Assembly: GCA_964439025.1 (NCBI GenBank)
Contig: CAYTMW010000009.1
Location: 35,749 to 99,748, forward strand
Reading direction: 5' to 3'
Length of the DNA stretch: 64,000 nt
From: an uncultured Gemmatimonas sp.
GTDB taxonomy: Bacteria > Gemmatimonadota > Gemmatimonadetes > Gemmatimonadales > GWC2-71-9
This document shows, one piece after another, positions 11,564 through 44,850 of the stretch. Within the stretch, counting starts at the first letter, position 1. Every line of letters starts with the position of its first letter. The notes beneath the pieces are model-generated. The model was not told where the DNA came from and did no database searches. It worked only from the letters and a program-made list of their open reading frames with translations. A program made the translations under genes and the position numbers.

Positions 11564-11568
11564 GGCGG

Positions 11569-27396: not shown

Positions 27397-27491
27397 CCGG
27401 CTTTGCCTCCCGATCCAGGGGCCCGTTTCGATTGCCCGGTCCCGAAATTAAACCTATCTTGAGCCCACCCTGCCTCGGGTGTTTCCTGACG

Positions 27492-29009
27492 ATGTCGAGC
27501 CCCTATCAAGTCAGCTCTCTCTTCGGCGCCCTGTTTTTCCTGGTGCGCCACGACCCGAGCGCCACCGCCGATCACGCGGCGCTGGCCGCTGCCCTTCGCG
27601 CAGCGCAGGGACCGGGGGAGCTGCGGATCGATATCGAGCCGGATTCGCTACGGATCGACGGCCGTCCGGTGATGCTGGAGTCTCCCGGGGCCACCATGCT
27701 GTTCGAACAGATGTATCTGCACGGCGCGCGGTCTCTGCGCGTGCTGCCCTCCGCCACGGAAGCCGATCTCATCCGCTTCGCCTCGGTGCTGGGAGCGTTT
27801 CCCGGCACCTACAACTCGTACCAGCATGTCCTCCACGCGCTCGGACCGTCCGCCGAGCACCTGGCCCTGACGGAGGGCGCGAACGATTCCGAGGTCTTCC
27901 GCGCGATGCCCCGCCGGTCCTCGGGAGTGTTCGGATTCAGCGTGGAGGAAACCTCCCGCTTCGACGTCCCCCGGGTCCGCGGCGAGATCACCGCGGAATA
28001 CGAGCGGTTTCAGTATCTCGGGTCGAATCCCGATGCGGCGCGGGAGCTCGATGCGGAGGCCGGGGGCATGGGAGCAATCGGTCGCACCCGGCAGCCTCCG
28101 CTCGAGGAGCTGCTGCTCCGGGGGCGCGAGGCCATCGAGCGGGAGAATTGGGACGGACTCCTCGAGGTCGCCCTCCTGATCGCCGAAGGGGAAAGCGAGG
28201 CCCCCTCCGAGCTCGCCAGCAGCACCTACCGCATCGAGCTCAAGCGGCTCCTGTCGCGCAAGCATCTGGCGATGATCGCGCGCTTTCTGCAAAGCGAGCG
28301 CAAGCACGATGCGATTGCCCTCATGCGCCGTTTCGGCGCAGACTCGACCGAGATTCTCATGGATCTGCTCATCCAGGCGAGGACCATCGGCGAGCGTCGG
28401 GGGTACTACTCCGCAATCGCCCAAATGAGCAACGGAACGGAAGCGGTCGTCCAGTATCTGGGCCATCAGCAGTGGTATGTGGTGCGAAACGCCGCGGATC
28501 TGTGCGGCGAGATCGGGCTGGCGGATGCCGTTCCCGATCTCGCCCGGCAAATCGAGCACCCCGACGAACGCGTCCGGAAAGCGGTGGCGGAGGCGCTTGG
28601 AAAGATCGGAACGATGCAGGCCATGGAGCCGCTCCGGGCGCTGATGACCGATCCGTCCCCGGCGGTCCGACTCAAGGCGGTGTCCAATCTGACCGGGCGA
28701 AACACCCGCGGGATGCCGCCCGCGATTGCGGAGCTGCTCAAAAACGAAGACAACGCCGACGTGCAGCACGAGGCGCTGCTCGCGCTGGGCCGGATCGCAA
28801 CCCCGGACGCCATCGTGCAGCTTCGGGAGTGGGCTCAGCCGGGAGGAAAGCTGCTCGGGCGGAAGTCACTCGCGTTGCGGCTGGCTGCGATCAAGGGACT
28901 GGCGCTCGCGGGCCCCTCCGCCGTCGATGTGCTGGTTGCCCTCGAGCGGGACGCAGCCCCCGAAATTCGCGTCGTGGCGAGCGCCGCGGTCGCCGCAATG
29001 CGCCCCTGA
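27492..29009 (+). CDS. HEAT-repeat protein with N-terminal domain of unknown function
   Basis: Start at MSSPYQV. C-terminal half has 'VR.AA...LG.IG...AVP.L......PD..VR.AVAEALGKIG' type repeats. Confidence 0.75.
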   Translation: MSSPYQVSSLFGALFFLVRHDPSATADHAALAAALRAAQGPGELRIDIEPDSLRIDGRPVMLESPGATMLFEQMYLHGARSLRVLPSATEADLIRFASVLGAFPGTYNSYQHVLHALGPSAEHLALTEGANDSEVFRAMPRRSSGVFGFSVEETSRFDVPRVRGEITAEYERFQYLGSNPDAARELDAEAGGMGAIGRTRQPPLEELLLRGREAIERENWDGLLEVALLIAEGESEAPSELASSTYRIELKRLLSRKHLAMIARFLQSERKHDAIALMRRFGADSTEILMDLLIQARTIGERRGYYSAIAQMSNGTEAVVQYLGHQQWYVVRNAADLCGEIGLADAVPDLARQIEHPDERVRKAVAEALGKIGTMQAMEPLRALMTDPSPAVRLKAVSNLTGRNTRGMPPAIAELLKNEDNADVQHEALLALGRIATPDAIVQLREWAQPGGKLLGRKSLALRLAAIKGLALAGPSAVDVLVALERDAAPEIRVVASAAVAAMRP

Positions 29010-29022
29010 GCGCTAGCTCGGA

Positions 29023-29208
29023 ATGAAGTCGGCGGCCGCCGTCACCCGGTGCGCAAACGCCGCCAGCAACCCGCCCCCGCCCGGCACCCACTCGGCACCC
29101 CACTCCTTCGGGGTGACCTTCCCGTCGGTGGGTACCTTCAAGTTCTTTTGTGGAGTACATGGCGGACCCGACGCAGGCATGCACGGCACCATCACCGTGG
29201 TCCCATGA
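29023..29208 (+). pseudogene. Cupredoxin-like C-terminal remnant ORF (61 aa)
   Basis: Ends '...FGVTFPSVGTFKFFCGVHGGPDAGMHGTITVVP' (type-1 copper C-x2-H-xn-M loop), but there is an in-frame TAG 7 nt upstream of the ATG and the ORF is too short for a full domain. Confidence 0.3.
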
Positions 29209-29372
29209 CCGTGCGCCAATTCGGTGTCTGCGTAACCGCGTGCGCCCTGGTGACCACGGCGGTGTCGGCGCAAGGCACCACCGATTGCTTTCCCGCGAAG
29301 AATTCCAACGAAACGCGGACGATGGCGGTCTTCACCGGCAGCGTGGTGGGACGCATCAGACTCGGACGGTGA

Positions 29373-30683
29373 TCAGGGCGCCTGCCGGACGGTCCAGTCG
29401 CCTGGCCGCGGGCCGGAAACGAGTTGCCATCCCGGAAGCAGCTCCAGCACCCATCCAGGGCCGGTGAGCCGCCGTCCCACGGTGTCGGCCGGTGCGGGCA
29501 CCAGCGCGCGCCGGAAATCCGCAGCGATCAGCCCTCCCGAGACATCGCATAGCAGCACTCCCCACCGGTCGGTCAGCCGCAGCATCCCGTAGACCGACCC
29601 CAGGGAGCTCATCGCCTCCACCTTTGCGGGATCGAAGCTCATTTTCATCTCGGCGAGCGGCAGCTCGAGCACCGGTCCGGTCACCAATCGGGTGCGGAGC
29701 GCCGCGACGTGCTTCCTGCGCGCCACGACCCGCGCGTCTTCACTCTTCCGCACCGCAACCAGGCCGTAGGACGCTCCGCGCACCGATGCCGATCGCCCGG
29801 CTTCGCGCGGGGCCCCGAGGGATTTGGCCGCCGTCATCGCCAGGTCATCAGTTGCGCGCAGGATCACCCGCCACCCGGGCGCAAGGTCATCGAGCAACAA
29901 CCCCCACGCGGGGCCCGTGTGGTAGGCAAAGTCCCGCTCGAAATTGGTCGCACTGTCGAGCACCGCGAGCCTTCGATCGGCGAGCTCGCGTCGCGCGGCC
30001 ACCGATGTCGTGGCCAGCGCGATTCCGGAATACTCCGCCAGCCCTTCGTTGAGCTCCAGCGCGCGCTCATCGCTTTCGGATCCCGGAAACAGCGCCCGGC
30101 GCGCGTGGCGGAAGGCGACGGCGTCCTCCAGCGCCCGGGCGCGCGCCGCTCCGGTCGAGCCGAGCGCTTTACGAAGCGCGCGCCCCTCGAGCCGGAGCCA
30201 GAGCCGTCCATCGCGGGTGCCAAGGTGGGCGTTGGATTGAATCCCCGACGGGAAGCCGAGACTGTCCTGCACTCGGTGCCAGAGCTCGTGAGCAAAGAGC
30301 ACTTGGCGCTGGAGCGAGTCAGCCCCAGGTGGCCACACCACCATCGCCCAGGTGCGCCCCGCCCAGCGCAGCGAGGTATTCGCGATCGGCTCCGCATCGG
30401 GAAGAGTGCTGGTGAACATCCCGCCCAGCGGCTGCAGGGTTGCCTCGCCATCCGCCACGGCACTGAGAACAATTCTGGTCGATGCGTGGACGAACAGAAT
30501 CGGCCCCTCGAGCGACCGACCCCACAACGTCCCCGCATCCCGCGCGGCCAGCTCCGCAGCCTCGCGAAAATAGCGCCGCGCCTCGGCCGTATCCATCGGC
30601 ATCGGCGCGGCCTGCGCGCCGAGAGCCGGGGGGCCGAAGAGCAGCCCGCCGGCGCCGAGCGCCATGAAGAGTGGGGTTCGCAT
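29373..30683 (-). CDS. Secreted hypothetical protein with HExxH motif (putative metalloprotease)
   Basis: Signal MRTPLFMALGAGGLLFGPPALGAQA. 'LFAHELWHRVQ' contains HELWH. Confidence 0.7.
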   Translation of the reverse strand: MRTPLFMALGAGGLLFGPPALGAQAAPMPMDTAEARRYFREAAELAARDAGTLWGRSLEGPILFVHASTRIVLSAVADGEATLQPLGGMFTSTLPDAEPIANTSLRWAGRTWAMVVWPPGADSLQRQVLFAHELWHRVQDSLGFPSGIQSNAHLGTRDGRLWLRLEGRALRKALGSTGAARARALEDAVAFRHARRALFPGSESDERALELNEGLAEYSGIALATTSVAARRELADRRLAVLDSATNFERDFAYHTGPAWGLLLDDLAPGWRVILRATDDLAMTAAKSLGAPREAGRSASVRGASYGLVAVRKSEDARVVARRKHVAALRTRLVTGPVLELPLAEMKMSFDPAKVEAMSSLGSVYGMLRLTDRWGVLLCDVSGGLIAADFRRALVPAPADTVGRRLTGPGWVLELLPGWQLVSGPRPGDWTVRQAP

Positions 30684-30751
30684 TACCTGCAGGATGCCCG
30701 AGCCGCGCAGACGGTCGCCCGGATCCTGGCGGCGACCGCGTGCGCGGGCTC

Positions 30752-31936
30752 CTACTTACAGGACTCCGTGCGGTCGAACGACGGATCCTGGCCTGGGGCG
30801 ACTTTGAACTTGATGATCAGACTTCCTGCGCCCGGCAGCCCCGCAGGCAGAAGCTGCTGGTGCTGCATCCCGGTCACCCGGCCTCCCTCGTCGGATGCGC
30901 GGCTGTCCTGCCGCTCACTCACTTCGGCCCGGAAGGCCTGACCGTCCGGAAGCCCGGTGATGGGATCGAACGGCGTCGCGAGGAGGCTGCCGTCGGCGCG
31001 GAAGCTCTGCCGCACTTCACCCCCGGCGGCGGTCTGAACCTCCTGCTCAAGCTCCACTGGTCCTTGCACCAGGAGGTAGTCGAACGGCCCGTCGCTGCAG
31101 AACGGCTTCGGAATCACCTGGCTGAACTGAATGGTCATCCTCTGGCTCGTGGGCGCCGCGGCGGGCGCCTGGCCGGCCAGAACGAATGATGTCGCGTGCC
31201 CGTCGTTCGCGATGCCGACATCGGTCGCGACGCCTCCCAGCGGACCGCCGATGAGGAAGCGGAGGTCCACAGGAAGGCCGTTGTAAATCACGGCGGGAAT
31301 GGCGCGGTGTGCCGGTGCGGCAGTGATCGCAGCGGTCGGAGCAGGAGCGGCGCCAAGGAGTCCGGTACGAGCCAGATCATAGGTGACCAGTTGCTCGGCC
31401 AGCTCCCAGCTCAGCACCTGGTGATCTGTCGTGCCGGGAATCAGCACCTCGAAATGCGCATTGCCGATCGTGAACGGGCCCATCTTCACGAGGCGAAGGT
31501 GAAATCGGATCGGCCCGTAAGTGCCGCATTGCAGCTGGATCGCGGTTCCGCCCCACCCCGCGGCCTCGCCGTAACCCGCCATCAGTCCCCCGATGGCGTC
31601 CGACCAGGTGCAGGTGAAGGGGAACACCGGCGGGAACGGGGCGCCGCGAGTCCCATCGAGGCCCAGCAGTGCGTTCCGGATGGCGCGCGGATCAGCGGCG
31701 CCGGTAAACACCAGATTCACCGGGTCCTGGGAGGTCACCAGGTCGTCGGTGAGATACGGGAGGATCGTCGCCGATCCGGAGCCGACCGGAATCGTCACGA
31801 GGGGCGCGGCGGGAATCACTGCCTGCCGGAGCGAGGGCAGGGTCTCGGTCGGAAGCGTTTTGGATCGATCGCTGCAACCGGCGAGCGCGATAAGCGCGGT
31901 GACGGCGCTGGTGATCCGGCCTGAAAGCGATGACAT
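30752..31936 (-). CDS. Hypothetical lipoprotein
   Basis: Start at MSSLSGRITSAVTALIALAGCS (lipobox LAGC) with GGAG upstream. The track ORF 5' extension overlaps the upstream gene. Confidence 0.7.
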   Translation of the reverse strand: MSSLSGRITSAVTALIALAGCSDRSKTLPTETLPSLRQAVIPAAPLVTIPVGSGSATILPYLTDDLVTSQDPVNLVFTGAADPRAIRNALLGLDGTRGAPFPPVFPFTCTWSDAIGGLMAGYGEAAGWGGTAIQLQCGTYGPIRFHLRLVKMGPFTIGNAHFEVLIPGTTDHQVLSWELAEQLVTYDLARTGLLGAAPAPTAAITAAPAHRAIPAVIYNGLPVDLRFLIGGPLGGVATDVGIANDGHATSFVLAGQAPAAAPTSQRMTIQFSQVIPKPFCSDGPFDYLLVQGPVELEQEVQTAAGGEVRQSFRADGSLLATPFDPITGLPDGQAFRAEVSERQDSRASDEGGRVTGMQHQQLLPAGLPGAGSLIIKFKVAPGQDPSFDRTESCK

Positions 31937-31952
31937 GACTGAGTCTCCTGAG

Positions 31953-32654
31953 TTATGGTTGAATGAAGAAGCCTGCGCCGATCGTGTAGACGAGACGGGA
32001 CCGGTTCGTTCCGCCGAAGAAACCGTGCAGCGAGAGTCCGGGACCCCAGCTGAAGTCGCCCATCGGCACCGACAGGTCGAGAAAGGCGCCGATGCGCTCC
32101 TTGGAATCGGGGATCGGGGTCGTCGTGGCTCCCGCAAAGACCCTGAGCTTCCGGACCCGGCCCTGATTGAGCGCCACACCGACGCGAGGAAGGCCGGTGA
32201 GCCCCATTGTGGTCTCTGGAAAGCCGTAGTCAGCCCGGAAGTGGGCTCGGTCGAGCGGTCCGAGCCTGAGGGAACCGGAGGGCGACCAGGACCGGTCGAT
32301 CCCGCCGAACGACGCGATCCCCAGCCCGAGACCGAAGTTCTTCCGTTCGAGCACCGCCTCCGCCGCGCCGAACACCCCGTCCCGCTCGACCGTTCCGTCC
32401 TGCACGCTGCCCGCGGCTCCGTGAATACGCACCCGGTCGCTGACCCAGACCTCGGATGAGGCTCCCCAGCTGGTGTACTCGAGCGGTTCATACACCGATT
32501 CACCGGCGCAGGTCACCGCATCCCTGAACGCCAGGTCTCCGCCCCCGACGCCGAGCCCGAGCCGGATCCGGCCCGAGCCGTCCCGATGGATGTCGACCGG
32601 TGCGGTCTGCCAGAGCAGCAGGAGTAGAGGAGCAGTGAGGAGGCGTGCCGACAT
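31953..32654 (-). CDS. Hypothetical secreted beta-rich (outer-membrane-like) protein
   Basis: Signal-like MSARLLTAPLLLLLWQ. Gly/aromatic-rich alternating pattern. Confidence 0.6.
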   Translation of the reverse strand: MSARLLTAPLLLLLWQTAPVDIHRDGSGRIRLGLGVGGGDLAFRDAVTCAGESVYEPLEYTSWGASSEVWVSDRVRIHGAAGSVQDGTVERDGVFGAAEAVLERKNFGLGLGIASFGGIDRSWSPSGSLRLGPLDRAHFRADYGFPETTMGLTGLPRVGVALNQGRVRKLRVFAGATTTPIPDSKERIGAFLDLSVPMGDFSWGPGLSLHGFFGGTNRSRLVYTIGAGFFIQP

Positions 32655-32711
32655 CGCGATTCTCCGCCGAATGGTTCGACGACAGGATCGCCTGCAGGGG
32701 TCAAGCGAGGA

Positions 32712-34634
32712 TCAAGAGCCGGGAGGGACCGTCGGTGCGGAGGGAAGACCACTGCGCTGGCGCACCCGGGCCTGCTGGCCCGGCGTCATCATGTCGCGGG
32801 CAACGACCAGACGGGCCAGCGTGGCGACGAATCCGTAGCCCTGCCCGTCCACTTCGAGCCACCGTTGCCATTCGAGCTCGTCGAGGGCCGCCTCCACGCG
32901 GGCGGCGGGAAGTCCCGTGGCCTGAGTGAGCGACGCCTCGGTGGTCCTCCCGCCGAGCACCGCCGCCGCGGCGAGTACCTGCCGCGCGTCCTCGCCGAGC
33001 CGCCGGAATCCGATGCGGAGGGCGGCGACGACCGTGTCGGGAAGATCGGAAGGCAGGGTCTGGGTGAGGGTATGCGACGGCGCGGGCCAGGCGGCCGTGC
33101 CCTGCTTGAGGTCGAGGCCTTGAGCCACCGCGGACAGCAGCTCCACGGCGAGGAAGGGGATCCCCGCGGAATCACTGGCGACCCGGCGGGAAACCCGTTC
33201 GAGCGACAGCGCATCGTACGCCGGGAGCGCCCACGCGGCGAGCTGGCGGAGCGCCTCGCCACCCAGCGGCGAAAGCGCGATCGTCACGCCCGGGACGCCG
33301 GCGCCCAGCCGGCGACGGAGCTCATCCAGCTCTCCGCGCGGTGGGTGCGGGGTAGCGGCCAGCATCACACAGAGCGGCGCCCGTGGCAGGTCGCGCAGCA
33401 GGCCGACCAGCGCGAGGAGAGAGCTGCGATCGGCCCACTGGGCATCGTCGATGGCGAGCAACATCGGCGCCTCGCCAGCGGCGGCGGCCGTCACGGTGGA
33501 GAAGGCCCGGTTGAGCGGCATGGGGGCAACCTGAGCCACGCTCCGGAACCGCTCCGCCCATTCCGGCAGGTGAGCGGCGAATCCCGCCAGCGCCTCGGGG
33601 ACCGCCGCGGGAATTCCGGGCGCATCGAGCAACCCACCACGCGCGAGGCCGAGGATGCCGCTCTCTTCGTCGCTCCGGTCACTCTCGACCGCCCGCACCA
33701 GCACCACACTGGCGCCGGCAAGCACCGCGCGGCCCGCGAGCTCTTCAAGCAATCTCGTCTTCCCGGTGCCCGACTCACCCTCTACCACGATTGCCGTGGC
33801 GCCCTGACCCGCGCGGCAGCGGTCCCAGAGATCGAGCAGCGTCTGGAGCTCCTCGCTGCGGCCGACCAGCGGTGCGCGCCGATGCTCGATCTGCGCCGGC
33901 TGCGACGCGGGTTGCCTCGCCCGCATCCGCCCCTTCCGAATCCGCTCGGCGAGCTGGCGGGTCTCTTCCGCAGGGGCTGCTCCCAGCTCGCGCAGCCGGC
34001 CGGCAAAGCGCTCGGCGTGCGCGAGGGCTGCGCTGGCATCGCCCTCCCCCGCCAGCGCGGCCATGACCCCGCACGCCGCCGCATTCGACACGGGATCGAG
34101 CGCCTCGGCCCGACCCGCCGCCGCCAGCGCTTTAGCCGCGTGCCCCTGGCGGAGCAGCTCGCCACTCCAGCCCAGGAGCGCCGCGATGGAACGGCCGGTC
34201 CAGTGTCGCCGCTCTGAAGCCAGCCAGTCCTCGAAACCGTCGCAACCGGCCACCGCGAATCCTTCCAGGAATTCCCCCGCGACCAGCGAGGCGGCATCGG
34301 CCCAGGCCCCGTCGGTCATCAGCGCCTCCAGCGCCTCGGCATCGAGGCGGACGGCTTCGGGGACGAGGCGCACCTGCCCCGCCGAGGTATCCAGGCCCTC
34401 TTCGATGCCGCTCCGGCGCAGTACGCGCAACGCCTCGTTGAGCGAGTGCCGCGCGGCGCTCTCGTCCTTCTCCGGCCAGAGGAGTCCGCAGAGATGCTCC
34501 CGGGTGCGGGCGCGCTTGGGAGAGCGAGCCAGATAGACCAGCAGCGCGAGATGCTTGCGCCAGAGCAGCTCGGCGGGGGCGGGAGCGCCGTCGACGATCA
34601 CTTCGATCGGGCCCAGCACTCTGCACGTGATCAC
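32712..34634 (-). CDS. Winged-helix/BTAD + AAA ATPase transcriptional regulator (SARP/AfsR-like)
   Basis: N-terminus 'RVLGPIEV...G........RK..ALL.YLA......R..L..LLWP' followed by a BTAD region. Walker A 'GESGTGKTRLLEE'. GTG start overlaps the kinase stop as GTGA. Confidence 0.8.
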   Translation of the reverse strand: MITCRVLGPIEVIVDGAPAPAELLWRKHLALLVYLARSPKRARTREHLCGLLWPEKDESAARHSLNEALRVLRRSGIEEGLDTSAGQVRLVPEAVRLDAEALEALMTDGAWADAASLVAGEFLEGFAVAGCDGFEDWLASERRHWTGRSIAALLGWSGELLRQGHAAKALAAAGRAEALDPVSNAAACGVMAALAGEGDASAALAHAERFAGRLRELGAAPAEETRQLAERIRKGRMRARQPASQPAQIEHRRAPLVGRSEELQTLLDLWDRCRAGQGATAIVVEGESGTGKTRLLEELAGRAVLAGASVVLVRAVESDRSDEESGILGLARGGLLDAPGIPAAVPEALAGFAAHLPEWAERFRSVAQVAPMPLNRAFSTVTAAAAGEAPMLLAIDDAQWADRSSLLALVGLLRDLPRAPLCVMLAATPHPPRGELDELRRRLGAGVPGVTIALSPLGGEALRQLAAWALPAYDALSLERVSRRVASDSAGIPFLAVELLSAVAQGLDLKQGTAAWPAPSHTLTQTLPSDLPDTVVAALRIGFRRLGEDARQVLAAAAVLGGRTTEASLTQATGLPAARVEAALDELEWQRWLEVDGQGYGFVATLARLVVARDMMTPGQQARVRQRSGLPSAPTVPPGS

Positions 34635-37414
34635 GGGGGACAATGCTGCGCGGTGAACTGGCGGGCGGAATCGGCCCTGCTCTTGAAGGGGGGACCACCG
34701 TCCTTCCAGTGCCGGGCGACGGCGCGGTAAGCGGAGCATCGCTCCCGCGACGTGGTGCCTTTCAGATTCGCCAGGTGCCATCGCACCAGCGTCCCGAGTG
34801 CCCACGCCATTTCACCCGGCGTCGGGTCGCCGGTCCCGTGGCCGACGGTCTGCAAGTGCTCGTGCCAGAGCAGCGTGTTCCGCGCCGACTCGAATTCCTT
34901 CAGCCGCTCGAATTGTTCGGCGCGCAACAGGCGGATCATTGCATCCGCGAGAGGCGCCTCGTGTTTTGGCGCTTCTTCGAGCGGCGGCAGGCTGGGCAAC
35001 GCCGCGAGCGCGCCGCGTGCATCGCCCTGCTCGCCCAGAACCGCAGCGTGGAGAATCGCGCCAAAAGATTTTGGACCCCGCGACAGCGCCGTCGCGGCCG
35101 CTTTTCCGCGGGCCGGATCACCGGAACGGACCGCGAGGAGACCAGACGCCAGGGCGGCGCGCGTCTTGAGCGCGGAGTGTGCTGTGCCCGGCACGGAATA
35201 GGCGTCCAGCGCCGCGAGCAGGTCCGCCGGTGCACGGCGGACCGCCGGATCGGGGTCAAAGGTGAGAAGCGTGGCTTCCAGCTCCAGCGCGAGGAGAGGC
35301 AGTGAGACATCGGAAGACACCTGCTCGAGCCGCGCCCTGGTCACGCGCATCGAATCGAGTCGGCCCAACGCGGTGTATCCGAACAGCTGGCCGAGCAGCC
35401 CTTCGCGGACCGGCTCGGCGCGGCCAGGCCACGCGCGCGTGATCAATCCCCCGAGCTCGACGGCCCCGCGCGGCGCGTCCGCGGTCATCATGAGCCGCCC
35501 GCCGGCGGCGGCATCCTTGCTCCTCGCAAGCGCTGGATCCGACAGCACGGCGAGGGAGAAGGTCTTCGCACTGTCGGCGGGAAGAAAACGCCAGTGGTAC
35601 CCCAGACTGAGGAGCACCCGCATCCCGGCGGAAAATCCTCCGGCGGGCCCAGGCGGAAGCAGGAGAAGGCTGTCGAGCGCCGCACCGGCGGAGTTCGCGT
35701 TGCCCTCGCTCAGCAAGAGCCAGGTGAGGTGCTCCCAGCCAGGACCGAAGCGCGGTCGCAGCAGTACGGCCCGCTCGAGCGGCTCTTGCGCAGCGATGCG
35801 CGGGAAGCTGTGGAGCGGGCCCCGGTGAAAGAGCTCGTCCCCGTACTCGAAGGATGCCAGGAAAAAATCCCCGGCTTTGGCCGCCTGGGCCAGCGTGTCC
35901 AGCCGTGCGGGGAGTGGGGCGAGCGCGGCGTGAATGAGCCGCTGGTAATGGGAGGGAAAGCGGCCGATTCCAGCCCGGAGTCGCGCGAGGCGCGTCGAAT
36001 CGTGACCCTGCCCCAGCCATCGCTCGATATCGAGCAGGCGGAAGCTGCAGAGATAGCAGGCGGGGTCTGCCGCCTCCGCGCTCCGGAACGCATCGAACGC
36101 CTCCTCCCACCGCGCCTGGGCCAGGTACTGCTCGGCCCGCAGCCATTGATCGAAGCCCTGCTCATTCGAGGGCAGCGCGTCGACTGGCAGCCAGACGTCC
36201 GCCAGAGAGTCCCGCTGCCAGAGTGAACGCACCACTTTGAAAGAGAGCGCCTCCGCCACAGCGCCCAATTCCGCTCGTGCTCCTTCGACGCTCACCGTAT
36301 CCGAGGCGGTGCCTGCCGCCCACCGAGCGCGTATCCGGATCTTGCCGGCGGCCTCGCCGAAGGATCCGCTCACCCGCACCAGGGCGGAATCCGGTGGCCG
36401 CCCGAGAGGGAGCACGTTGAAGTCGGGATACTCGAGCGACCGGCGAAGCATTGCAGACACCGAGTCTCCGAGAGACGCGCTCACGCCGGGCGACTCCGAC
36501 CGGAATGTCTCGACGGCGATGGTGACCGCCCCCCGGGGAGCCGACACCGGACCCGCCGGGCGCAGGACTAGCCACCCCACGATGGCTGCCAGCACCGCCC
36601 CAATCCCGACGAGAGACCAGCGCGGCCGGCGGCGAGATTGTCCGAGCGCCTGAAGCAGCTCGCCGGCGTCGGACCATCGCTCGGAAGGATCGAGAGCGAG
36701 CGCGCGCCGCAGCGGAGAAACCAGCGCGGCGGGAACCTGCCGCCAATCGGCGGTTTCGGGCGCCTGATAGGCGGGCCAGCGACGGCCGGTACACGCTTCC
36801 CAGAGCACGAGACCGACGGCATACACATCGGTCCGCATCGTTACCGGAACGCCATCGCGTTGCTCGGGGGACATGTAGCGCGGGGTACCGATCAATTCGC
36901 CGGGCGTCGTGAGCCCGGCGTCGTGCTCCTGCCGCCACCGCGCGATTCCAAAATCTCCGAGCAGCGCCTGGCCCTGCCGGAGAAAGATGTTGGCGGGCTT
37001 CACGTCGCGGTGCACCACGCCCTGGGCGTGCGCTGCCCCGAGGGCTCGGAGAAGGTCCTGGCCCAGACGGAGGGCTTCGGCCGGCGGAAGCGGCCCGCGT
37101 CGCAGCCGGTCGGCGAGCGATTCCCCCTCGACGAACTCCATCACGTAGTACAGGAGACCGTCCGCTTCACCGGCGTCGTAGATCGGAACGATGTTGGGAT
37201 GGGAAAGCCGGGCCAGGATCCGGCCCTCGGCGAGGAATCGTTCGGCGGCAATTGCGGTGGCGAGCTCGGGCCGAAGAATCTTGATCGCGACGCGGCGGTC
37301 GAGACGCCGTTGCCGGGCCTCGAACACGATTCCCATACCACCGCCCGCCACCTCGCGCTCGATGTCGTATTCAGATGCAAGGGCGAGCCGGAACCGCTCG
37401 ATCAGAGAACTCAG
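34631..37414 (-). CDS. Ser/Thr protein kinase with TM segment and large C-terminal TPR-like domain
   Basis: Contains 'GGGMGIVFEA....RRVAIK', 'HRDVKPANI', 'DFGIA', 'GTPRYMSPE'. The 5' end is set at CTG 37414-37412 (see findings); the first canonical start is GTG 37351. Confidence 0.85.
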   Translation of the reverse strand: MSSLIERFRLALASEYDIEREVAGGGMGIVFEARQRRLDRRVAIKILRPELATAIAAERFLAEGRILARLSHPNIVPIYDAGEADGLLYYVMEFVEGESLADRLRRGPLPPAEALRLGQDLLRALGAAHAQGVVHRDVKPANIFLRQGQALLGDFGIARWRQEHDAGLTTPGELIGTPRYMSPEQRDGVPVTMRTDVYAVGLVLWEACTGRRWPAYQAPETADWRQVPAALVSPLRRALALDPSERWSDAGELLQALGQSRRRPRWSLVGIGAVLAAIVGWLVLRPAGPVSAPRGAVTIAVETFRSESPGVSASLGDSVSAMLRRSLEYPDFNVLPLGRPPDSALVRVSGSFGEAAGKIRIRARWAAGTASDTVSVEGARAELGAVAEALSFKVVRSLWQRDSLADVWLPVDALPSNEQGFDQWLRAEQYLAQARWEEAFDAFRSAEAADPACYLCSFRLLDIERWLGQGHDSTRLARLRAGIGRFPSHYQRLIHAALAPLPARLDTLAQAAKAGDFFLASFEYGDELFHRGPLHSFPRIAAQEPLERAVLLRPRFGPGWEHLTWLLLSEGNANSAGAALDSLLLLPPGPAGGFSAGMRVLLSLGYHWRFLPADSAKTFSLAVLSDPALARSKDAAAGGRLMMTADAPRGAVELGGLITRAWPGRAEPVREGLLGQLFGYTALGRLDSMRVTRARLEQVSSDVSLPLLALELEATLLTFDPDPAVRRAPADLLAALDAYSVPGTAHSALKTRAALASGLLAVRSGDPARGKAAATALSRGPKSFGAILHAAVLGEQGDARGALAALPSLPPLEEAPKHEAPLADAMIRLLRAEQFERLKEFESARNTLLWHEHLQTVGHGTGDPTPGEMAWALGTLVRWHLANLKGTTSRERCSAYRAVARHWKDGGPPFKSRADSARQFTAQHCPP

Positions 37415-37800
37415 AGGGTGGATCCCCCGGGCGGGGCGGGCTTGCGCGCAGGGTCCGCGAGCAGCCGCTCGGTAAAGTCCACCCGCTCCGCCAGTTCGCC
37501 CACTTCGCGGCGAAGCGATTCGATCTCATCGAGCAGCTCTTGCGGCACACCATGGGCCAGCGCGGCCGCGTCCTCCGGGTCCCAAAGCGCCACCCGGCGG
37601 CCATCGCCATCCCGGAATTCGCCGCTGGCGATGACAATCAGATCATACAAATACCAGAGGCCGAGGCCACCGAGCGTGCAGAGCTGCAGCAGCCCGGTGC
37701 CGATCTTCCCCACGTAAAAGCGGTGGGCGCCGAACACCCCGAGCGGGATGCAGAGTGCCAGCGCGACCGCCCGGGACTTTTCAGAGGGGTTCATTGCCAT
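37411..37800 (-). CDS. TM2 domain protein with C-terminal coiled-coil tail
   Basis: Contains 'LGVFGAHRFYVGKIGTGLLQL.TLGGLGLWYLYDLI'. Confidence 0.8.
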   Translation of the reverse strand: MAMNPSEKSRAVALALCIPLGVFGAHRFYVGKIGTGLLQLCTLGGLGLWYLYDLIVIASGEFRDGDGRRVALWDPEDAAALAHGVPQELLDEIESLRREVGELAERVDFTERLLADPARKPAPPGGSTL

Positions 37801-37879
37801 GGCGGGACGATACCATTGTCCCTCCAGATGTCCAGAGCGGCCCTAGCGGGAACGGTTTCACGGGTTACCTTGCCGCGCC

Positions 37880-38905
37880 ATGCGGAGTGCCATTGCCCTC
37901 GTCTGTCTCAGCGCGCTCAGCCGCCCCGCCCAGGCGCAGTGGGCCGCCCAGCGGTCCGGCACCGCGGCCGAGTTTCGCGGGCTCCACGCCGTGAACGATC
38001 GCGTAGTCTGGGCGGCCGGCCGGGGTGGGGTCGTCGCACGCACCACCGACGGCGGCGCCACCTGGTCCGCCGACAGCATTCCGGGCGCGTCGAATCTCTT
38101 TCTCATCGCGATTCGGGCGGTCGATCATCGCCGCGCCTGGGCGCTCGGCACGGCATTCTCCGGCCCGTCGGCGGCGCGGATCTATCGCACCGACGACGGC
38201 GGCCGAACCTGGCGTCTCCAATACGAGAACGCCACCACGGGGATTTTCTTCGACGGTATGGCGTTCTGGGACGCGAACAACGGGATCGCCTTCAGCGATC
38301 CGATCGATGGGCGATTCGTCATCATCACCACACGCGATGGCGGAGCGCACTGGAGCCGGATCGCTCCCGAGCGGATCCCGCCGGCGCTGCCGCGCGAAGC
38401 GGCATTCGCGGCGAGCGGCACCGCGATCACCGTGCGCAGGAAGAACGAGGTGTGGATCGGCACCGGCGGTGGCGCGAAAGCGCGGGTTCTGCGCTCGTCC
38501 GACCGCGGAAAGTCCTGGCAGGTGTTCGAGACGAAAGCGAGCGGGGGCCAGGCCAAGGGAATTTTCGGGTTGGCGTTCCGGGATGGCCGACACGGCGTCG
38601 CGGTCGGCGGAGACTATCAGCAGCGCGACGGCTCGCTGGAGAATCTCCTCCTCACCGACGACGGCGGCCGTACCTGGCGGATCGGATCGAGCGCGGCCCT
38701 GGCCGGCGTGCAATACGGCGTCGCCGTGGCGGGAGCGCGCACCTTCGTCGCGACAGGACCGATCGGAAGCGCCGTCTCGACCGACGGGGGACTCACCTGG
38801 CGCCGCCTCGAAGGACCAGGCTTCAACACGGTGAGCTGCGCCGGAGGCACCTGCTGGGCTGCCGGGGTCGCGGGCCGCATTTCCCGGCTCAGACCAGTGC
38901 GCTGA
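37880..38905 (+). CDS. BNR/Asp-box repeat beta-propeller protein (Ycf48/sialidase-like), secreted
   Basis: Signal MRSAIALVCLSALSRPAQAQ. Six S/T-x-D-x-G-x-T/S-W boxes (TTDGGATW, TDDGGRTW, TRDGGAHW, SSDRGKSW, TDDGGRTW, STDGGLTW). Confidence 0.85.
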   Translation: MRSAIALVCLSALSRPAQAQWAAQRSGTAAEFRGLHAVNDRVVWAAGRGGVVARTTDGGATWSADSIPGASNLFLIAIRAVDHRRAWALGTAFSGPSAARIYRTDDGGRTWRLQYENATTGIFFDGMAFWDANNGIAFSDPIDGRFVIITTRDGGAHWSRIAPERIPPALPREAAFAASGTAITVRRKNEVWIGTGGGAKARVLRSSDRGKSWQVFETKASGGQAKGIFGLAFRDGRHGVAVGGDYQQRDGSLENLLLTDDGGRTWRIGSSAALAGVQYGVAVAGARTFVATGPIGSAVSTDGGLTWRRLEGPGFNTVSCAGGTCWAAGVAGRISRLRPVR

Positions 38906-42021: not shown

Positions 42022-42558
42022 CTACACGCTGCCGCCCTCCGGCCGTCCCTCCCACGCCGCCCGCGGAATCCCGTCGATCACCCTGTAAAAACCGAGATCG
42101 GCTCCCGACCGCAGCTTGGCGATGTACACTATCTGTCCCGTGTGCATGCCGAAGTGCTCGACCGCGTGATAAATCGCTTCGAGGAGGGTGACGGTTCTGC
42201 CCTGCACCTGCCGCCGCTCGCTGAGCGACGCGGGATCGGTGGCCGCGATGACGGAGTCGGCCTGGAGCACCGCTTCGGTGATCAGCGCGAGCAGCTCGGT
42301 CCGGGAAAGCGGCTCGCGGCTCGCGAACTCGGAGGCGCGATCGCGGCGATCGGGCGCGCCTCCCACTCCGCTCACCACCCACTGCCGGATATTGCCGGCC
42401 AGATGCAGCAGAAGATTCCCGATGCTGTTGGCGGCTTCGTGGGGACGCCACCAGAGATCGGCCTCCGACAGCACATCCACCGACCCGCCAATCTTGGGGA
42501 GATAGTGCGCGGTGAGGTATTCACGCGACTGGGCGAGAAAGGCGGCGCCGCTATCCAT
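42022..42558 (-). CDS. DinB-superfamily (DUF1572-like) protein
   Basis: Contains 'NSIGNLLLHLAGN.RQW' and 'EAIYHAVEHFGMHTGQIVYI' (His triad pattern). Confidence 0.8.
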   Translation of the reverse strand: MDSGAAFLAQSREYLTAHYLPKIGGSVDVLSEADLWWRPHEAANSIGNLLLHLAGNIRQWVVSGVGGAPDRRDRASEFASREPLSRTELLALITEAVLQADSVIAATDPASLSERRQVQGRTVTLLEAIYHAVEHFGMHTGQIVYIAKLRSGADLGFYRVIDGIPRAAWEGRPEGGSV

Positions 42559-42566
42559 GGGAACTC

Positions 42567-42594
42567 GCTATCGGCTATCGGCTATCGGTCCGGC
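42567..42594. repeat. (GCTATCG)x3 + GTCCGGC array
   Basis: Read directly from the sequence. It encodes the last residues (..AGPIADSR) and the stop of the TetR gene. GCTATCGGTCCGGC is also present at 18634-18647, and its reverse complement at 19039-19052. Confidence 0.9.
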
Positions 42595-43278
42595 CAGCAC
42601 AGCCGGCACGATCATGCCCAGTACGGTCTCTTCTGCGGTCGTCGCGGAGATCTGCGCGCCGTCGGGCGTCCACTCCCTGTGGACGGCCATCCACGTCAGG
42701 GATTCTACTATCAGGTGGGCAGCCGCGAGGTGATCGTGCCGGGCCGGCAGGGCCCCCTCCTTGGTGCGCCGCTGGAGGTAATCCGCCAGGCGGCGGACCC
42801 CGCCCCGCCAGAATCTCCGGAAAAAGACCTGGGAGACATCCGGCCAGTCGCCCCCACACCGCTCAACCAGCTTTACCCCCCGGCGGTATCGGTGGAGCCA
42901 TCGGTAGAGCTCCCGGATAATCCCTTCCACCTCCGAGGCAATGTCCTCAGGTGGCTGAGATTCGGTCGCAAGCCAAAGCTGGGGAAAATGGGATGCGTTT
43001 CGGAGACAGCGCCATAGGGCATCGGCGACGGCGCCCGGCTCGGGTGCCGGATGGGGAAAGGTCATGGTCCAGACCGTCGGATCCTCCATCGCCCGCCGGA
43101 TGGCCAGATCGAAAAGCGCTTCTTTTCCTGCGGCGTACAGGTAGATCGTTCCCGGTCCTACTCTGGCTCGCTCGGCGATTAGAGCAATCTTTGCAGTTGC
43201 GTAGCCATGAAGAATAAATACCTCAGTCGCCGCATCAGCTATATGATCTATACGGTTAGCTGCTTTTACCCTAGGCAT
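42568..43278 (-). CDS. TetR/AcrR-family transcriptional regulator
   Basis: N-terminal HTH 'I..AA.EVF...GY...KIA.IAERA.VG.GTIY.Y...KEALF'. The 5' ~130 nt are markedly AT-rich. Confidence 0.85.
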   Translation of the reverse strand: MPRVKAANRIDHIADAATEVFILHGYATAKIALIAERARVGPGTIYLYAAGKEALFDLAIRRAMEDPTVWTMTFPHPAPEPGAVADALWRCLRNASHFPQLWLATESQPPEDIASEVEGIIRELYRWLHRYRRGVKLVERCGGDWPDVSQVFFRRFWRGGVRRLADYLQRRTKEGALPARHDHLAAAHLIVESLTWMAVHREWTPDGAQISATTAEETVLGMIVPAVLAGPIADSR

Positions 43279-43287
43279 GATTATGAT

Positions 43288-43306
43288 AATAACTGAATCA
43301 GTTATT
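43288..43306. promoter_or_regulatory. Perfect 19-bp palindrome AATAACTGA-A-TCAGTTATT (candidate TetR operator)
   Basis: 9-1-9 perfect dyad beginning 10 nt upstream of the TetR start codon. Confidence 0.4.
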
Positions 43307-43575
43307 TAAAAACAGATGTCCCCATTTCTCTATCAAGTTATCGCGCGATCGGCAGATTCTTGCGGTCTGACATTGGTCGTGCTTAGAGAATGATTTTCGG
43401 TCTGTAGCCAGGATCACTTCATCCTCATAGCCATTAGTATCCCTTACTACTGCTAGGCTTTTCCACGGGCCCGGCAGCCTCAAAATGCGTCATCCGAGTG
43501 CTCGATTTCAGGTCGTATTGTACCACCTGATAGCCTGACCGAAAGCCGATTGCCGAAGCCAATGGCTGCTTCCTA

Positions 43576-43645: not shown

Positions 43646-44188
43646 GTGGAACCAACCAGTCTCGTTGCCCGCGTTCTGGCGGGCGACCAGGATGCCGAGC
43701 GCGAGCTGTACGGCTCGCACGTGGACCGGGTATATCGTCTCGTCTACCGGATGGTGGGAGACGGGGAGCTGGCGGCCGACTATACCCAGGACACTTTTAT
43801 CCGGACGTTCGACCGCCTGGCCACCTTTCGGGGCGAATCGGCGCTCTCGACCTGGATCACCTCGATCGCGATCTCGGTGGTCTACAACGGGCAGCGGAAG
43901 GTGAAGCGACTCAGGGCCCGGGAGGTCGACTTGGAGCACGCGGAGCCGGTGGCGATGCCACATCGGGAGGCCGACCCGGACCTCAAGGTCAAGCTGGCCT
44001 CGGCGATCGAGGACCTGCCGATGGGGTATCGCACCGTGTTTCTCATGCACGACGTGGAGGGGTTTACGCACCTGGAAATCGGCAGCGCGCTGGGGATCCA
44101 GGAGGGGACTTCGAAGGCGCAGTTGAGCCGGGCGCGCGCGAAACTTCGGCAGCAGCTGGCAGAGTACGCGGGAGATATTGCCTCATGA
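43646..44188 (+). CDS. ECF RNA polymerase sigma factor
   Basis: Contains 'LAADYTQDTFIRTFDRLATFRGES.LSTWI.SIA' and 'RTVFLMHDVEGFTHLEIG.ALGI.EGTSKAQLSRAR'. Confidence 0.9.
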   Translation: MEPTSLVARVLAGDQDAERELYGSHVDRVYRLVYRMVGDGELAADYTQDTFIRTFDRLATFRGESALSTWITSIAISVVYNGQRKVKRLRAREVDLEHAEPVAMPHREADPDLKVKLASAIEDLPMGYRTVFLMHDVEGFTHLEIGSALGIQEGTSKAQLSRARAKLRQQLAEYAGDIAS

Positions 44189-44850
44189 TGGATGATCGGG
44201 AAGACCGTCTGGATAATCTGATTCGCGACGCGGCCCGCGACTACCACGCGCCCCCCGCGACGCCCCGGGCGGAGATGTGGGAAGCGATTCGGGCGAGCCG
44301 TGACGCGGCGCGCACCGAGGTGCGGCCGCTCGTGGTGCGGCCGGCCCGTTCACCGCTTCGCCTGGTGTTCGGCATCGCGGCGCTCCTCGCGCTGGGTATC
44401 GCCATCGGCCGGCTGACCGTCCCTTCGCGGGGCGGTACGGCAGCGGCTCCGCCTCAGCCGATCATCGCCGCCCTGCCCGAGGCGGCCGCAGCCGCGCCGG
44501 AACAGCGCGAGCGGGGCGAAGTCGCCGCCCGCTATGCGACCGACGATCACCTGACCCAGGTGGAGACTTTCCTGACCGAGTTCGGCACCCGGCCCGCGGC
44601 GCTCGATTTCTCCGCGCAGGCGCAGGATCTTCTCACCGACACCCGTCTCCTGCTCGACTCGAAGCGGGTGGTGGACCCGAGAACCCGCAAGCTGCTCGAA
44701 GATCTCGAGCTGGTGCTGGCACAGATCGCCACGCTCGATCCCCGCGAGAATAACCGGGATCGCGATCTGATTGCCGACGGTCTGGCGCAGAGTCATCTCC
44801 GCACCCGCCTCCGGAATGCCATCCCGGCGGGCTCGGCCATTCGATTGTAA
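44185..44850 (+). CDS. Anti-sigma factor-like membrane protein
   Basis: ATGA overlap with the sigma gene. One TM segment (LRLVFGIAALLALGIAIG). Confidence 0.65.
   Translation: MMDDREDRLDNLIRDAARDYHAPPATPRAEMWEAIRASRDAARTEVRPLVVRPARSPLRLVFGIAALLALGIAIGRLTVPSRGGTAAAPPQPIIAALPEAAAAAPEQRERGEVAARYATDDHLTQVETFLTEFGTRPAALDFSAQAQDLLTDTRLLLDSKRVVDPRTRKLLEDLELVLAQIATLDPRENNRDRDLIADGLAQSHLRTRLRNAIPAGSAIRL

Follow-up and report, generated by a model that had tools for sequence, protein, structure and literature searches.

The window analysed here is a stretch of 64,000 nucleotides from an uncultured Gemmatimonas sp. (GenBank assembly GCA_964439025.1, contig CAYTMW010000009.1, positions 35,749 to 99,748 of the forward strand). 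Its minus strand carries six co-directional open reading frames (ORFs) between positions 29373 and 37800 (Table 1), whose coordinates are those given by an initial annotation made from the sequence alone. They code, in this order, for a TM2 protein, a Ser/Thr kinase, a transcriptional regulator and three secreted proteins that we name P4, P5 and P6. The gaps of 57 nt between regulator and P4 genes, 16 nt between P4 and P5 and 68 nt between P5 and P6 are also as first described. The cluster is bordered upstream by a divergent gene for a secreted BNR-repeat protein (37880-38905, plus strand), found 79 bp from the TM2 gene, and downstream by a convergent HEAT-repeat gene (27432-29009, plus strand). 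The GC content at third codon positions (GC3) is 0.78-0.84 in the six ORFs, as usual for coding DNA here, and 0.63-0.65 in the alternative upstream extensions of these ORFs. This lower value led us to retain the shorter ORF starts as the correct ones. No canonical terminator was found inside the cluster. The region is probably a kinase-gated transcription switch for the envelope lipoprotein P5, flanked by the TM2 and P6 genes as resident neighbours.

Table 1. Features of the cluster and its borders, with coordinates in the 64-kb window.
Feature	Coordinates	Strand	Description or evidence
TM2 gene	37411-37800	-	129 aa, Pfam TM2
Kinase gene	~37414-34631	-	Pkinase domain
Regulator gene	32712-34634	-	640 aa, winged helix-turn-helix (HTH) + BTAD + AAA_16
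P4 gene	31953-32654	-	233 aa
P5 gene	30752-31936	-	394 aa, lipobox
P6 gene	29373-30683	-	436 aa, HExxH
Tandem direct repeat CTTGATCCTCG CTTGACCCCTG	32695-32716	-	22 bp, predicted SARP-dimer box
-10-like hexamer GATCCT (NANNNT)	32684-32689	-	5-6 nt 3' of the box
Sigma-70-like promoter candidate TGGACA-16-TG-TATCGT	37807-37834	-	consensus scan, upstream of the TM2 gene
GC-rich hairpin, no U tract	30689-30755	-	RNA fold -44.2 kcal/mol, z -3.3
Cupredoxin remnant, last 48 codons	29062-29205	+	tblastn 73% identity, E 2e-18
Remnant of a 286/301-aa secreted-protein gene, ~230 internal codons deleted	29244-29369	+	tblastn E 9e-5

The pairing of a kinase with a BTAD/ATPase regulator, recognized in the initial annotation, is borne out by Pfam and by profile matches to EmbR and AfsR. 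The regulator has a BTAD domain (32.4 bits against a cutoff of 22.1, residues 112-233) and an AAA_16 domain (80.6 bits, above the cutoff, residues 255-423) with the Walker A motif GESGTGKT. The Trans_reg_C domain of Pfam scores 18.8 bits, under its cutoff of 26.2. A profile of 15 regulator orthologues matches in the PDB the structure of EmbR (2fez, E 3.8e-11, residues 6-247) and the SARP domain of AfsR (8hvr, E 1.8e-5, residues 6-235), and the N-terminal 250 residues are therefore assigned to a SARP domain. The alignment to EmbR ends at EmbR residue 268, ahead of its FHA domain, and the TPR proteins matched by the same profile in the PDB align within the BTAD region. The C-terminal region beyond the ATPase (~255-430) is helical. 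Pfam scanning of the regulator detected no GerE/LuxR HTH, NB-ARC or TPR domain. The predicted organization is of the SARP-LAL type, with an OmpR-type winged helix, BTAD and AAA_16 but no LuxR HTH. This architecture is known from PimR (PMC5930380). An identical 640-aa regulator that starts at GTG 34634 occurs in a public protein collection. In three loci of relatives (L009, L011 and L013, ~11100-13100, minus strand), P5 is approached from its other side by a further, convergent pair of kinase and SARP-LAL regulator genes and is thereby flanked by two paralogous regulator genes.

The kinase domain is well matched in Pfam (Pkinase, E 1e-39) and its VAIK, HRDVKPAN, DFG and SPE motifs are intact in the translation. 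One hydrophobic segment is found, at residues 265-283. The protein is predicted to be a Hanks-type Ser/Thr kinase with one transmembrane (TM) helix and an extracytoplasmic domain of ~640 residues without an assigned family. The kinase assignment and its TM segment, as initially proposed, are retained; the TPR-like character ascribed to the ectodomain is weakly supported (TPR_14, E 0.034; BLAST match to a TPR kinase, E 0.006). The GTGA overlap between kinase and regulator genes is real, and an overlap of the form NTGA (GTGA, ATGA or TTGA) is kept in 13 of 15 relatives, an arrangement through which the two genes appear to be translationally coupled. Arrays of several kinase genes surround the module in loci L016 and L082.

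The repeat that forms the box of Table 1 lies at the end of the regulator gene, its first copy including the regulator TGA stop codon (32714-32712). When the spacers between regulator and P5 genes of different loci were aligned, nearly every one read GCTTGAY-N4-GCTTGAS, with the regulator TGA inside the first copy. The pattern CTTGA-N6-CTTGA occurs once in the 64-kb window (32716-32701, minus strand; 0.02 expected). Loci and window together (1.35 Mb) contain 69 copies, compared with ~0.4 expected from the rate in the shuffled window. With few exceptions the copies share the strand of P5 and precede P5, P4 or co-regulated units. The box precedes P5 by no more than 400 nt in 36 of the 52 Gemmatimonadota loci; in nine further ones it stands before P4 or a 574-aa gene (no Pfam family) that heads the P5 unit. 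It is also present upstream of P5 genes without an adjacent regulator (L023, L029, L057, L070, L072), is degenerate in L096, where P5 is lost, and is absent from the P5 loci of other phyla, as established by a pattern search of those loci.

The box is followed by a -10-like hexamer. Alignment of 61 unique sites revealed an A at position 29 and a T at position 33, each in 55 of them. They match the two best-kept positions of a -10 element (NANNNT, positions 28-33) at a fixed distance from the repeats. Transcription is predicted to start at ~32677, yielding a 23-nt leader with the Shine-Dalgarno sequence GGAGA before the P4 initiation codon (ATG 32654). The TTGAC repeats were considered as ordinary -35 hexamers and rejected, their spacers to the conserved -10 being 9 and 20 nt. 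In the afsS promoter, the afs box is made of two 11-bp repeats from -40 to -19, the -10 element extends from -12 to -7, and two SARP protomers sit side by side on the box (PMC10936776). As read from the aligned sites, the geometry of box and -10 hexamer equals the afs box layout and agrees with the usual form of SARP target sites, direct repeats of 11-bp periodicity that lie against or over the -35 region and near the -10 element. The initial annotation had tied the kinase-regulator pair to the secreted cargo downstream, a connection that gains support from this predicted SARP-type operator and promoter, conserved at the regulator stop codon upstream of P4-P5.

The box also heads two more units in sister lineages, situated between regulator and P5 (L009-L013, L084) or just after P5 (L024 3611-9103, L048 2033-4869). 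One codes for an alpha/beta-hydrolase and a fatty-acid desaturase, the other for an epimerase/NAD_binding_4 reductase, a PAP2 phosphatase, a second epimerase and a CPBP (Rce1-like) protease. Their content gives a hint that the regulon might be concerned with lipids or the envelope.

The extent of the conserved unit was assessed with two collections of loci: 80 anchored on P5, with one genome per species, in which relatives of all window proteins were located, and 80 metagenome loci anchored on P6, ~52 of which have at least 1.3 kb of sequence upstream of P6. A co-directional regulator gene lies upstream of P5 in 36 of the 46 Gemmatimonadota species-representative loci, at a distance below 500 bp in 22, below 1.2 kb in three and of 2.9-5.8 kb in 11. 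In nine of the other loci no regulator was found near P5 within at least 2.5 kb of upstream sequence, and one was too short to tell. Kinase-domain matches are located upstream of the regulator in P5 loci, and the order persists down to 39-41% P5 identity. Among the 52 Gemmatimonadota loci, P6 is found near P5 in four, TM2 in about four and P4 in about four. Conversely, none of the 80 P6-anchored loci has a P5 relative, and distant P6 homologues adjoin unrelated genes.

Close relatives display several states of the cluster. The order TM2-kinase-regulator-P4-P5 is found in L087 and L088, followed by beta-lactamase-family and Rieske/FAD genes in the place of P6, a replacement also seen in L089. 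In L001 and L007 the order is TM2-kinase-regulator-P5-SnoaL-P6, with gaps of 35-56 nt. L096 has lost P5 (TM2-kinase-regulator-SnoaL-P6), L092 retains TM2, the kinase and a frameshifted 20-codon regulator remnant before P6, and in L091 everything from kinase through P5 is lost so that TM2 is followed by P6. TM2 and P6 were placed outside the core because both remain in relatives where the core is lost. The conserved core would then be kinase-regulator-(P4)-P5, with TM2 and P6 as resident neighbours. The search for conserved gene neighbourhoods called for by the initial annotation thus had a divided outcome: synteny of kinase, regulator and P5 extends across Gemmatimonadales, and the linkage of TM2, P4 and P6 is narrow. 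Relatives with the full cluster, without P5, without the regulator, or without all genes between TM2 and P6 are material for assigning phenotypes.

The lipobox LAGC described for P5 is present (...IALAGC) and its cysteine, C21, is invariant in 20 homologues. Four further cysteines are invariant in the alignment, as are DPxNL, DPR, R144/H146/R148, H161/E163, H172 and E178/E181 in the N-domain. Lipobox and cysteines fit an exported protein. In the AlphaFold2 (AF2) model of P5 (predicted local distance difference test, pLDDT, 80.5), the N-domain is of alpha/beta type and the C-domain is built from long beta-strands. P5 has no match in Pfam or NCBIfam, even when every alignment member was scanned at E up to 10. 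Its alignment profile found nothing meaningful among PDB sequences and its AF2 model no Foldseek match in the PDB at E <= 0.001. Weak Foldseek matches to lipid-transfer and pore-forming beta-sheet proteins (E 0.1-1, TM-score ~0.1) were not taken as evidence, and a suspected likeness of the N-domain to LssY_C-type domains was dropped since no scan supported it. An exhaustive profile search of 1.84 billion proteins defined a family of 371 representatives; its top 150 matches were all family members, with no bridge to a known family. Our best guess is that P5 is an enzyme or a ligand-binder acting on envelope lipids or another envelope component. The initial statement that the three secreted proteins cannot be assigned to a family was upheld by profile searches of P4, P5 and P6 and by structure searches of P5 and P6.

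Rare proteins carry the P5 domain in fusions. P0285 (817 aa) has an N-terminal radical-SAM domain, with the P5 part at 421-808, and in P0177 (587 aa) the P5 domain is fused to PQQ/BamB-like beta-propeller repeats. These may be gene-call artefacts or functional hints.

A different arrangement is found outside Gemmatimonadota. In 15 loci, P5 is divergent from the gene of an activator with GAF, Sigma54_activat and HTH_8 domains. They belong to Zixibacteria/GN15, Ignavibacteria, Deferrimicrobium, Acidoferrum and unclassified bacteria, and the activator is 57-62% identical across those phyla. A -24/-12 element (GGCAY-N5-TTGCW) precedes P5, with an exact match in 13 of the 15 loci and additionally in L040; L042 and L047 have only a looser match. 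The exact elements are located ~90-360 nt from the P5 start, and a stricter form beginning with T occurs in 14 copies in 1.29 Mb of loci. A Ser/Thr kinase gene is present on the other side of the activator in 11 of the ~12 loci with enough sequence. No TM segment was seen in the kinases of three of these loci (L043, L037 and L047).

P5 thus appears to be activator-dependent in two unrelated ways, with a kinase nearby in both. The occurrence of two unrelated activator types, both with a kinase nearby, supports the view that P5 is a regulated output. The comparison also suggests that the activator was exchanged non-orthologously while kinase and P5 were kept. The -24/-12 promoter and divergent GAF-AAA+-HTH activator of P5 in the other phyla resemble the setting of NifA/FhlA-type GAF enhancer-binding proteins. 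The window lacks this arrangement, and a non-homologous activator would fill the same functional slot. NifA/FhlA-type proteins are not known to be paired with a Hanks kinase. We propose tentatively, as an idea somewhat short of even odds, that kinase, ATP-dependent activator and P5 make up a previously unrecognised envelope-response circuit of at least five phyla (Gemmatimonadota, Zixibacteria/GN15, Ignavibacteria, the Desulfobacterota-like Deferrimicrobium and Acidobacteriota), in which the activator was swapped and kinase and P5 were kept. If true, P5 would be a new fold or enzyme family without a solved relative, its expression strictly signal-gated, and in Gemmatimonadota a SARP regulon with a defined operator would be known for the first time outside actinomycetes.

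A working model for the switch in the window can be drawn from these elements. TM2, kinase and regulator genes would be read from a promoter upstream of TM2, with kinase and regulator synthesis coupled via the GTGA overlap. The membrane kinase would sense an extracytoplasmic signal through its C-terminal domain of ~640 residues and modify, or otherwise control, the cytoplasmic SARP-LAL regulator, by analogy to AfsK/AfsR and PknH/EmbR. The AAA_16 ATPase of the regulator could act as a second, nucleotide-dependent switch. Two SARP domains bound to the 22-bp box would stand in for the -35 element that the promoter lacks and bring RNA polymerase to the GATCCT hexamer. The resulting internal promoter near 32677 would drive P4-P5, possibly reading through the hairpin into P6. 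P5 would then be exported, lipid-anchored, and perform the actual response.

Several observations weigh against this model. Neither box nor sigma-54 element is found upstream of P5 in seven of the 52 Gemmatimonadota loci and in ~19 of 34 loci of other phyla. The gaps of 57 and 16 nt would allow plain co-transcription of P4-P5 with the genes upstream, and the TTGAC repeats look like -35 hexamers, though the 9- and 20-nt spacing speaks otherwise. L096 keeps kinase and regulator without an adjacent P5; the regulator may therefore have other targets. Regarding the phosphorylation step, the Pfam scan identified no FHA or other recognised phospho-recognition module in the regulator, and phosphorylation of AfsR by AfsK has only a slight effect on activation in vitro (PMC10936776), so that the link between kinase and regulator may work differently. 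Finally, the hint of lipid remodelling rests solely on neighbour genes in sister lineages.

Another role can be conceived for P5, that of a lipoprotein co-sensor that binds the kinase ectodomain and presents or modifies the signal, its expression being under positive feedback. Kinase and P5 stay together across the activator exchange, the C-terminal domain of the kinase and P5 are both predicted to be extracytoplasmic, and the dense invariant polar patch of P5 suits ligand binding. However, the kinases of L043, L037 and L047 that lack a TM segment would have their TPR domains in the cytoplasm, unable to meet P5, and several loci (L029, L057) have a box-bearing P5 gene with no kinase next to it. 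We regard the co-sensor role as unlikely, though it fares best among the alternatives to a kinase-gated switch with P5 as its output.

Slightly less credible is the proposal of the initial annotation that the six genes form one self-contained sensing module, with P6 as a protease, P5 as its lipoprotein partner, P4 as an outer-membrane component and TM2 as part of the sensor. The genes are indeed co-directional with short gaps, no canonical terminator was found between them, P6 bears metallopeptidase-like motifs, and L001 and L007 retain TM2 and P6 around kinase, regulator, P5 and SnoaL genes with gaps of 35-56 nt. This proposal is contradicted by the counts in the two collections (P6 near P5 in 4/52 loci, P5 in 0/80 P6 loci), by the replacement of P6 in L087-L089, by the variants L091 and L092, in which TM2 and P6 outlast deletion of the core, and by the unrelated contexts of distant P6 homologues. 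P4 is narrowly distributed (15 clusters, and a remnant in L005), and a strong hairpin stands between P5 and P6. Our preferred reading of a switch for P5 assigns TM2 and P6 to its surroundings.

The predicted switch has partial counterparts among known systems. The AfsK/AfsR system of Streptomyces coelicolor likewise has a Ser/Thr kinase near a SARP activator with a STAND-type ATPase, and its afs box shares the plan of the predicted operator, a pair of 11-bp direct repeats that stops ~6 nt short of a weak -10 element in a promoter lacking a usable -35 (PMC10936776). AfsR is, however, a SARP-NOD-TPR protein (NB-ARC), whereas the regulator of the window has an AAA_16 domain (LAL-type) and no NB-ARC or TPR match in Pfam. 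The afsK and afsR genes are two genes apart, whereas those of kinase and regulator overlap here. The host is also a member of Gemmatimonadota and not of Actinomycetota, the box overlaps the stop codon of the regulator's own gene, and its repeat GCTTGAC is different. The target of AfsR, afsS, codes for a small regulator of antibiotic synthesis, in contrast to the predicted target here, an exported lipoprotein without an assigned family.

PimR-type SARP-LAL regulators of Streptomyces (PimR, SanG, PolR) share with the regulator described here a SARP part followed by a LAL-type ATPase without LuxR HTH, and their operators are also 22-nt boxes of two heptamers with 4-nt spacers (PMC5930380). The PimR box (CGGCAAG) lies upstream of the -35 element without overlapping it, whereas the box of the window abuts the -10 hexamer. 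PimR is encoded in antibiotic gene clusters without a kinase partner, whereas here a kinase is coupled to the regulator; no biosynthetic genes were found among the neighbours (TM2, kinase, P4-P6, HEAT, GAF and BNR genes). The PknH/EmbR pair of Mycobacterium tuberculosis also combines a membrane Ser/Thr kinase carrying an extracytoplasmic sensor with a SARP regulator of envelope genes, and EmbR is the best PDB match of the N-terminal 250 residues of the regulator. EmbR reads phosphorylation via a C-terminal FHA domain and has no ATPase, whereas the regulator here has AAA_16 and no FHA.

Work on SARP regulators and the kinases that partner them has been confined almost entirely to actinomycetes, where they act as switches of antibiotic synthesis. 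The same logic is now seen in Gemmatimonadota, a poorly studied soil phylum, where a predicted 22-bp operator recurs at 61 unique sites and the promoter geometry matches the cryo-EM model of AfsR. The P5 family (371 representative clusters) gains two independent regulatory handles, the SARP box and the sigma-54 promoter, and the kinase-regulator-lipoprotein unit with its box is a first experimental handle on this family. The swap of activators around a constant kinase and output would show how a component of a signalling circuit is replaced in nature by a non-orthologous one.

The TM2 protein is assigned with confidence by Pfam (TM2, E 2.5e-20, 72.9 bits against a cutoff of 27.9) and has two hydrophobic helices followed by a coiled-coil-like C-terminal tail. 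Its gene is found upstream of the kinase solely in a close sublineage (L001, L007, L087, L088, L092, L096). A consensus scan of the divergent region upstream of the TM2 gene yielded two sigma-70-like sites against 0.4 expected, one of which is listed in Table 1. The protein is far better conserved than its neighbours, with 85-93% identity in relatives in which P5 and P6 reach 60-80%. Its cluster at 90% identity has 45 members, and its tail has a faint PspB-like match (NCBIfam, E 0.13).

The CTGA overlap reported between TM2 and kinase genes requires a CTG start for the kinase, a non-canonical candidate. CTG 37414 and CTG 37405 are the possible codons. In the kinase ORF, ATG, GTG and TTG codons are absent upstream of the glycine loop. 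The first of them after the in-frame stop is GTG 37351, and initiation there would cut off the first strand of the kinase domain. At the aligned position relatives have ATG (L001, L007) or TTG (L087, L088) and the window has TCT then CTG; the CTGA arrangement of the two genes recurs in L087 and L088. These features point to non-AUG initiation, to termination-reinitiation after the TM2 stop codon, or to a recently damaged start.

P4 is a glycine-rich, beta-rich protein with a strongly conserved N-terminal hydrophobic segment (APLLLLLWQxAP). No match was identified in Pfam or NCBIfam. Its homologues amount to 15 clusters in 5.8 billion proteins, and its gene is located between regulator and P5 genes wherever the context is available (L006, L087-L089). 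In L005 (~890-1000) P4 is reduced to an in-frame remnant of 36 codons that keeps the N-terminus and the C-terminal FIQP. P4 is regarded as an accessory gene, confined to a narrow lineage, at the head of the predicted regulated unit. Its first 19 residues, MSARLLNAPLLLLLWQVAP (window 32598-32654), are conserved far beyond a normal signal peptide, with P9, L11, L12, L14, W15, Q16 and P19 invariant.

The HExxH motif noted for P6 is present as HELWH (132-136) and is invariant in homologues together with NEGLAEY (212-218), the alignment giving H132, E133, H136 and E213 as conserved residues. The AF2 model (pLDDT 89.8) has a beta-sheet, the HExxH helix, a helical bundle and a C-terminal beta-sandwich. 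No match was obtained for P6 in Pfam or NCBIfam (including all alignment members at E up to 10), in the profile search of the PDB or in the Foldseek search of the PDB. To judge from its motifs, P6 probably belongs to an unannotated family of gluzincin-like zinc peptidases. It resembles gluzincins (clan MA; M1, Peptidase_MA_2) in the HExxH, in the downstream glutamate of NEGxAEY and in the predicted order of beta-sheet and HExxH helix. The second histidine and the glutamate ligand are ~18-30 residues apart in M1 and similar families. In P6 the second histidine and the candidate glutamate ligand are 76 residues apart, a wider spacing than in M1-type gluzincins, and P6 has no sequence or fold match to clan MA.

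A P6 homologue, an M28/M42-family peptidase and a HEAT_2 protein are encoded within ~6 kb in L003 (10001-17136, Blastocatellia) and in L001 (10001-15639, Gemmatimonadales), and P6 adjoins the HEAT gene in the window (27432-30683). There may be a deeper link between P6 and the HEAT and peptidase genes. A Lactamase_B_3 (metallo-hydrolase) gene lies 3' of a P6 homologue of 49% identity at a 50-nt gap in two independent contigs, L002 (11340-12194) and a Logan contig.

P5 and P6 are separated by the hairpin of Table 1, which begins at the P5 stop codon and may act as a terminator or attenuator between them. Two independent deletions (L091 4600-4830, L092 4300-4480) end in its 3' half (ggcgaccgt...catcctgcagNtgATG), the window counterpart of this endpoint being 30684-30720. 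Since the deletions of L091 and L092 both end there, the hairpin is regarded as a recurrent rearrangement endpoint.

Downstream of P6, the gene remnants that were initially noted at 29023-29372 are real. They belong to two genes, both identified by tblastn with the intact genes of L087 and L001 (Table 1). An operon of HEAT, cupredoxin and 301-aa protein genes is intact in L001, L087, L091 and L096. Because these genes are intact behind the HEAT gene in relatives, the remnants represent decay of the neighbouring operon by deletions and not an insertion scar. The suggestion that the downstream end is compatible with insertion was therefore abandoned: synteny of the cluster and its two flanks with relatives (L001, L007, L087, L088) extends beyond 20 kb, the GC content of the cluster region is uniform (0.66-0.73), and tRNA and Rfam scans of the region were empty. 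Horizontal insertion of the cluster as an island, or a role in anti-phage defence as a system of kinase, STAND NTPase and effectors, is highly improbable, even with the remnants adjoining its downstream end, the known defence pairs of kinases and STAND-like ATPases and the match of the kinase domain to PADLOC kinase models, given that synteny, GC content and operon decay speak against it, that no tRNA and nothing integrase-like is present among the neighbours, that PADLOC matches just the generic kinase domain (PD-T4-6, mad6) with the regulator at E 0.002 at best and no score for TM2, P4, P5 and P6, and that the ATPase bears a predicted DNA-binding SARP domain with a conserved operator.

Elsewhere in the window, the GC content falls to 0.57-0.58 at 42500-43500, against ~0.68 in the remainder. 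This dip spans a TetR-like regulator gene (42568-43278, minus strand) and the spacer before a pair of genes for an extracytoplasmic function (ECF) sigma factor and its anti-sigma factor (43646-44850, plus strand).

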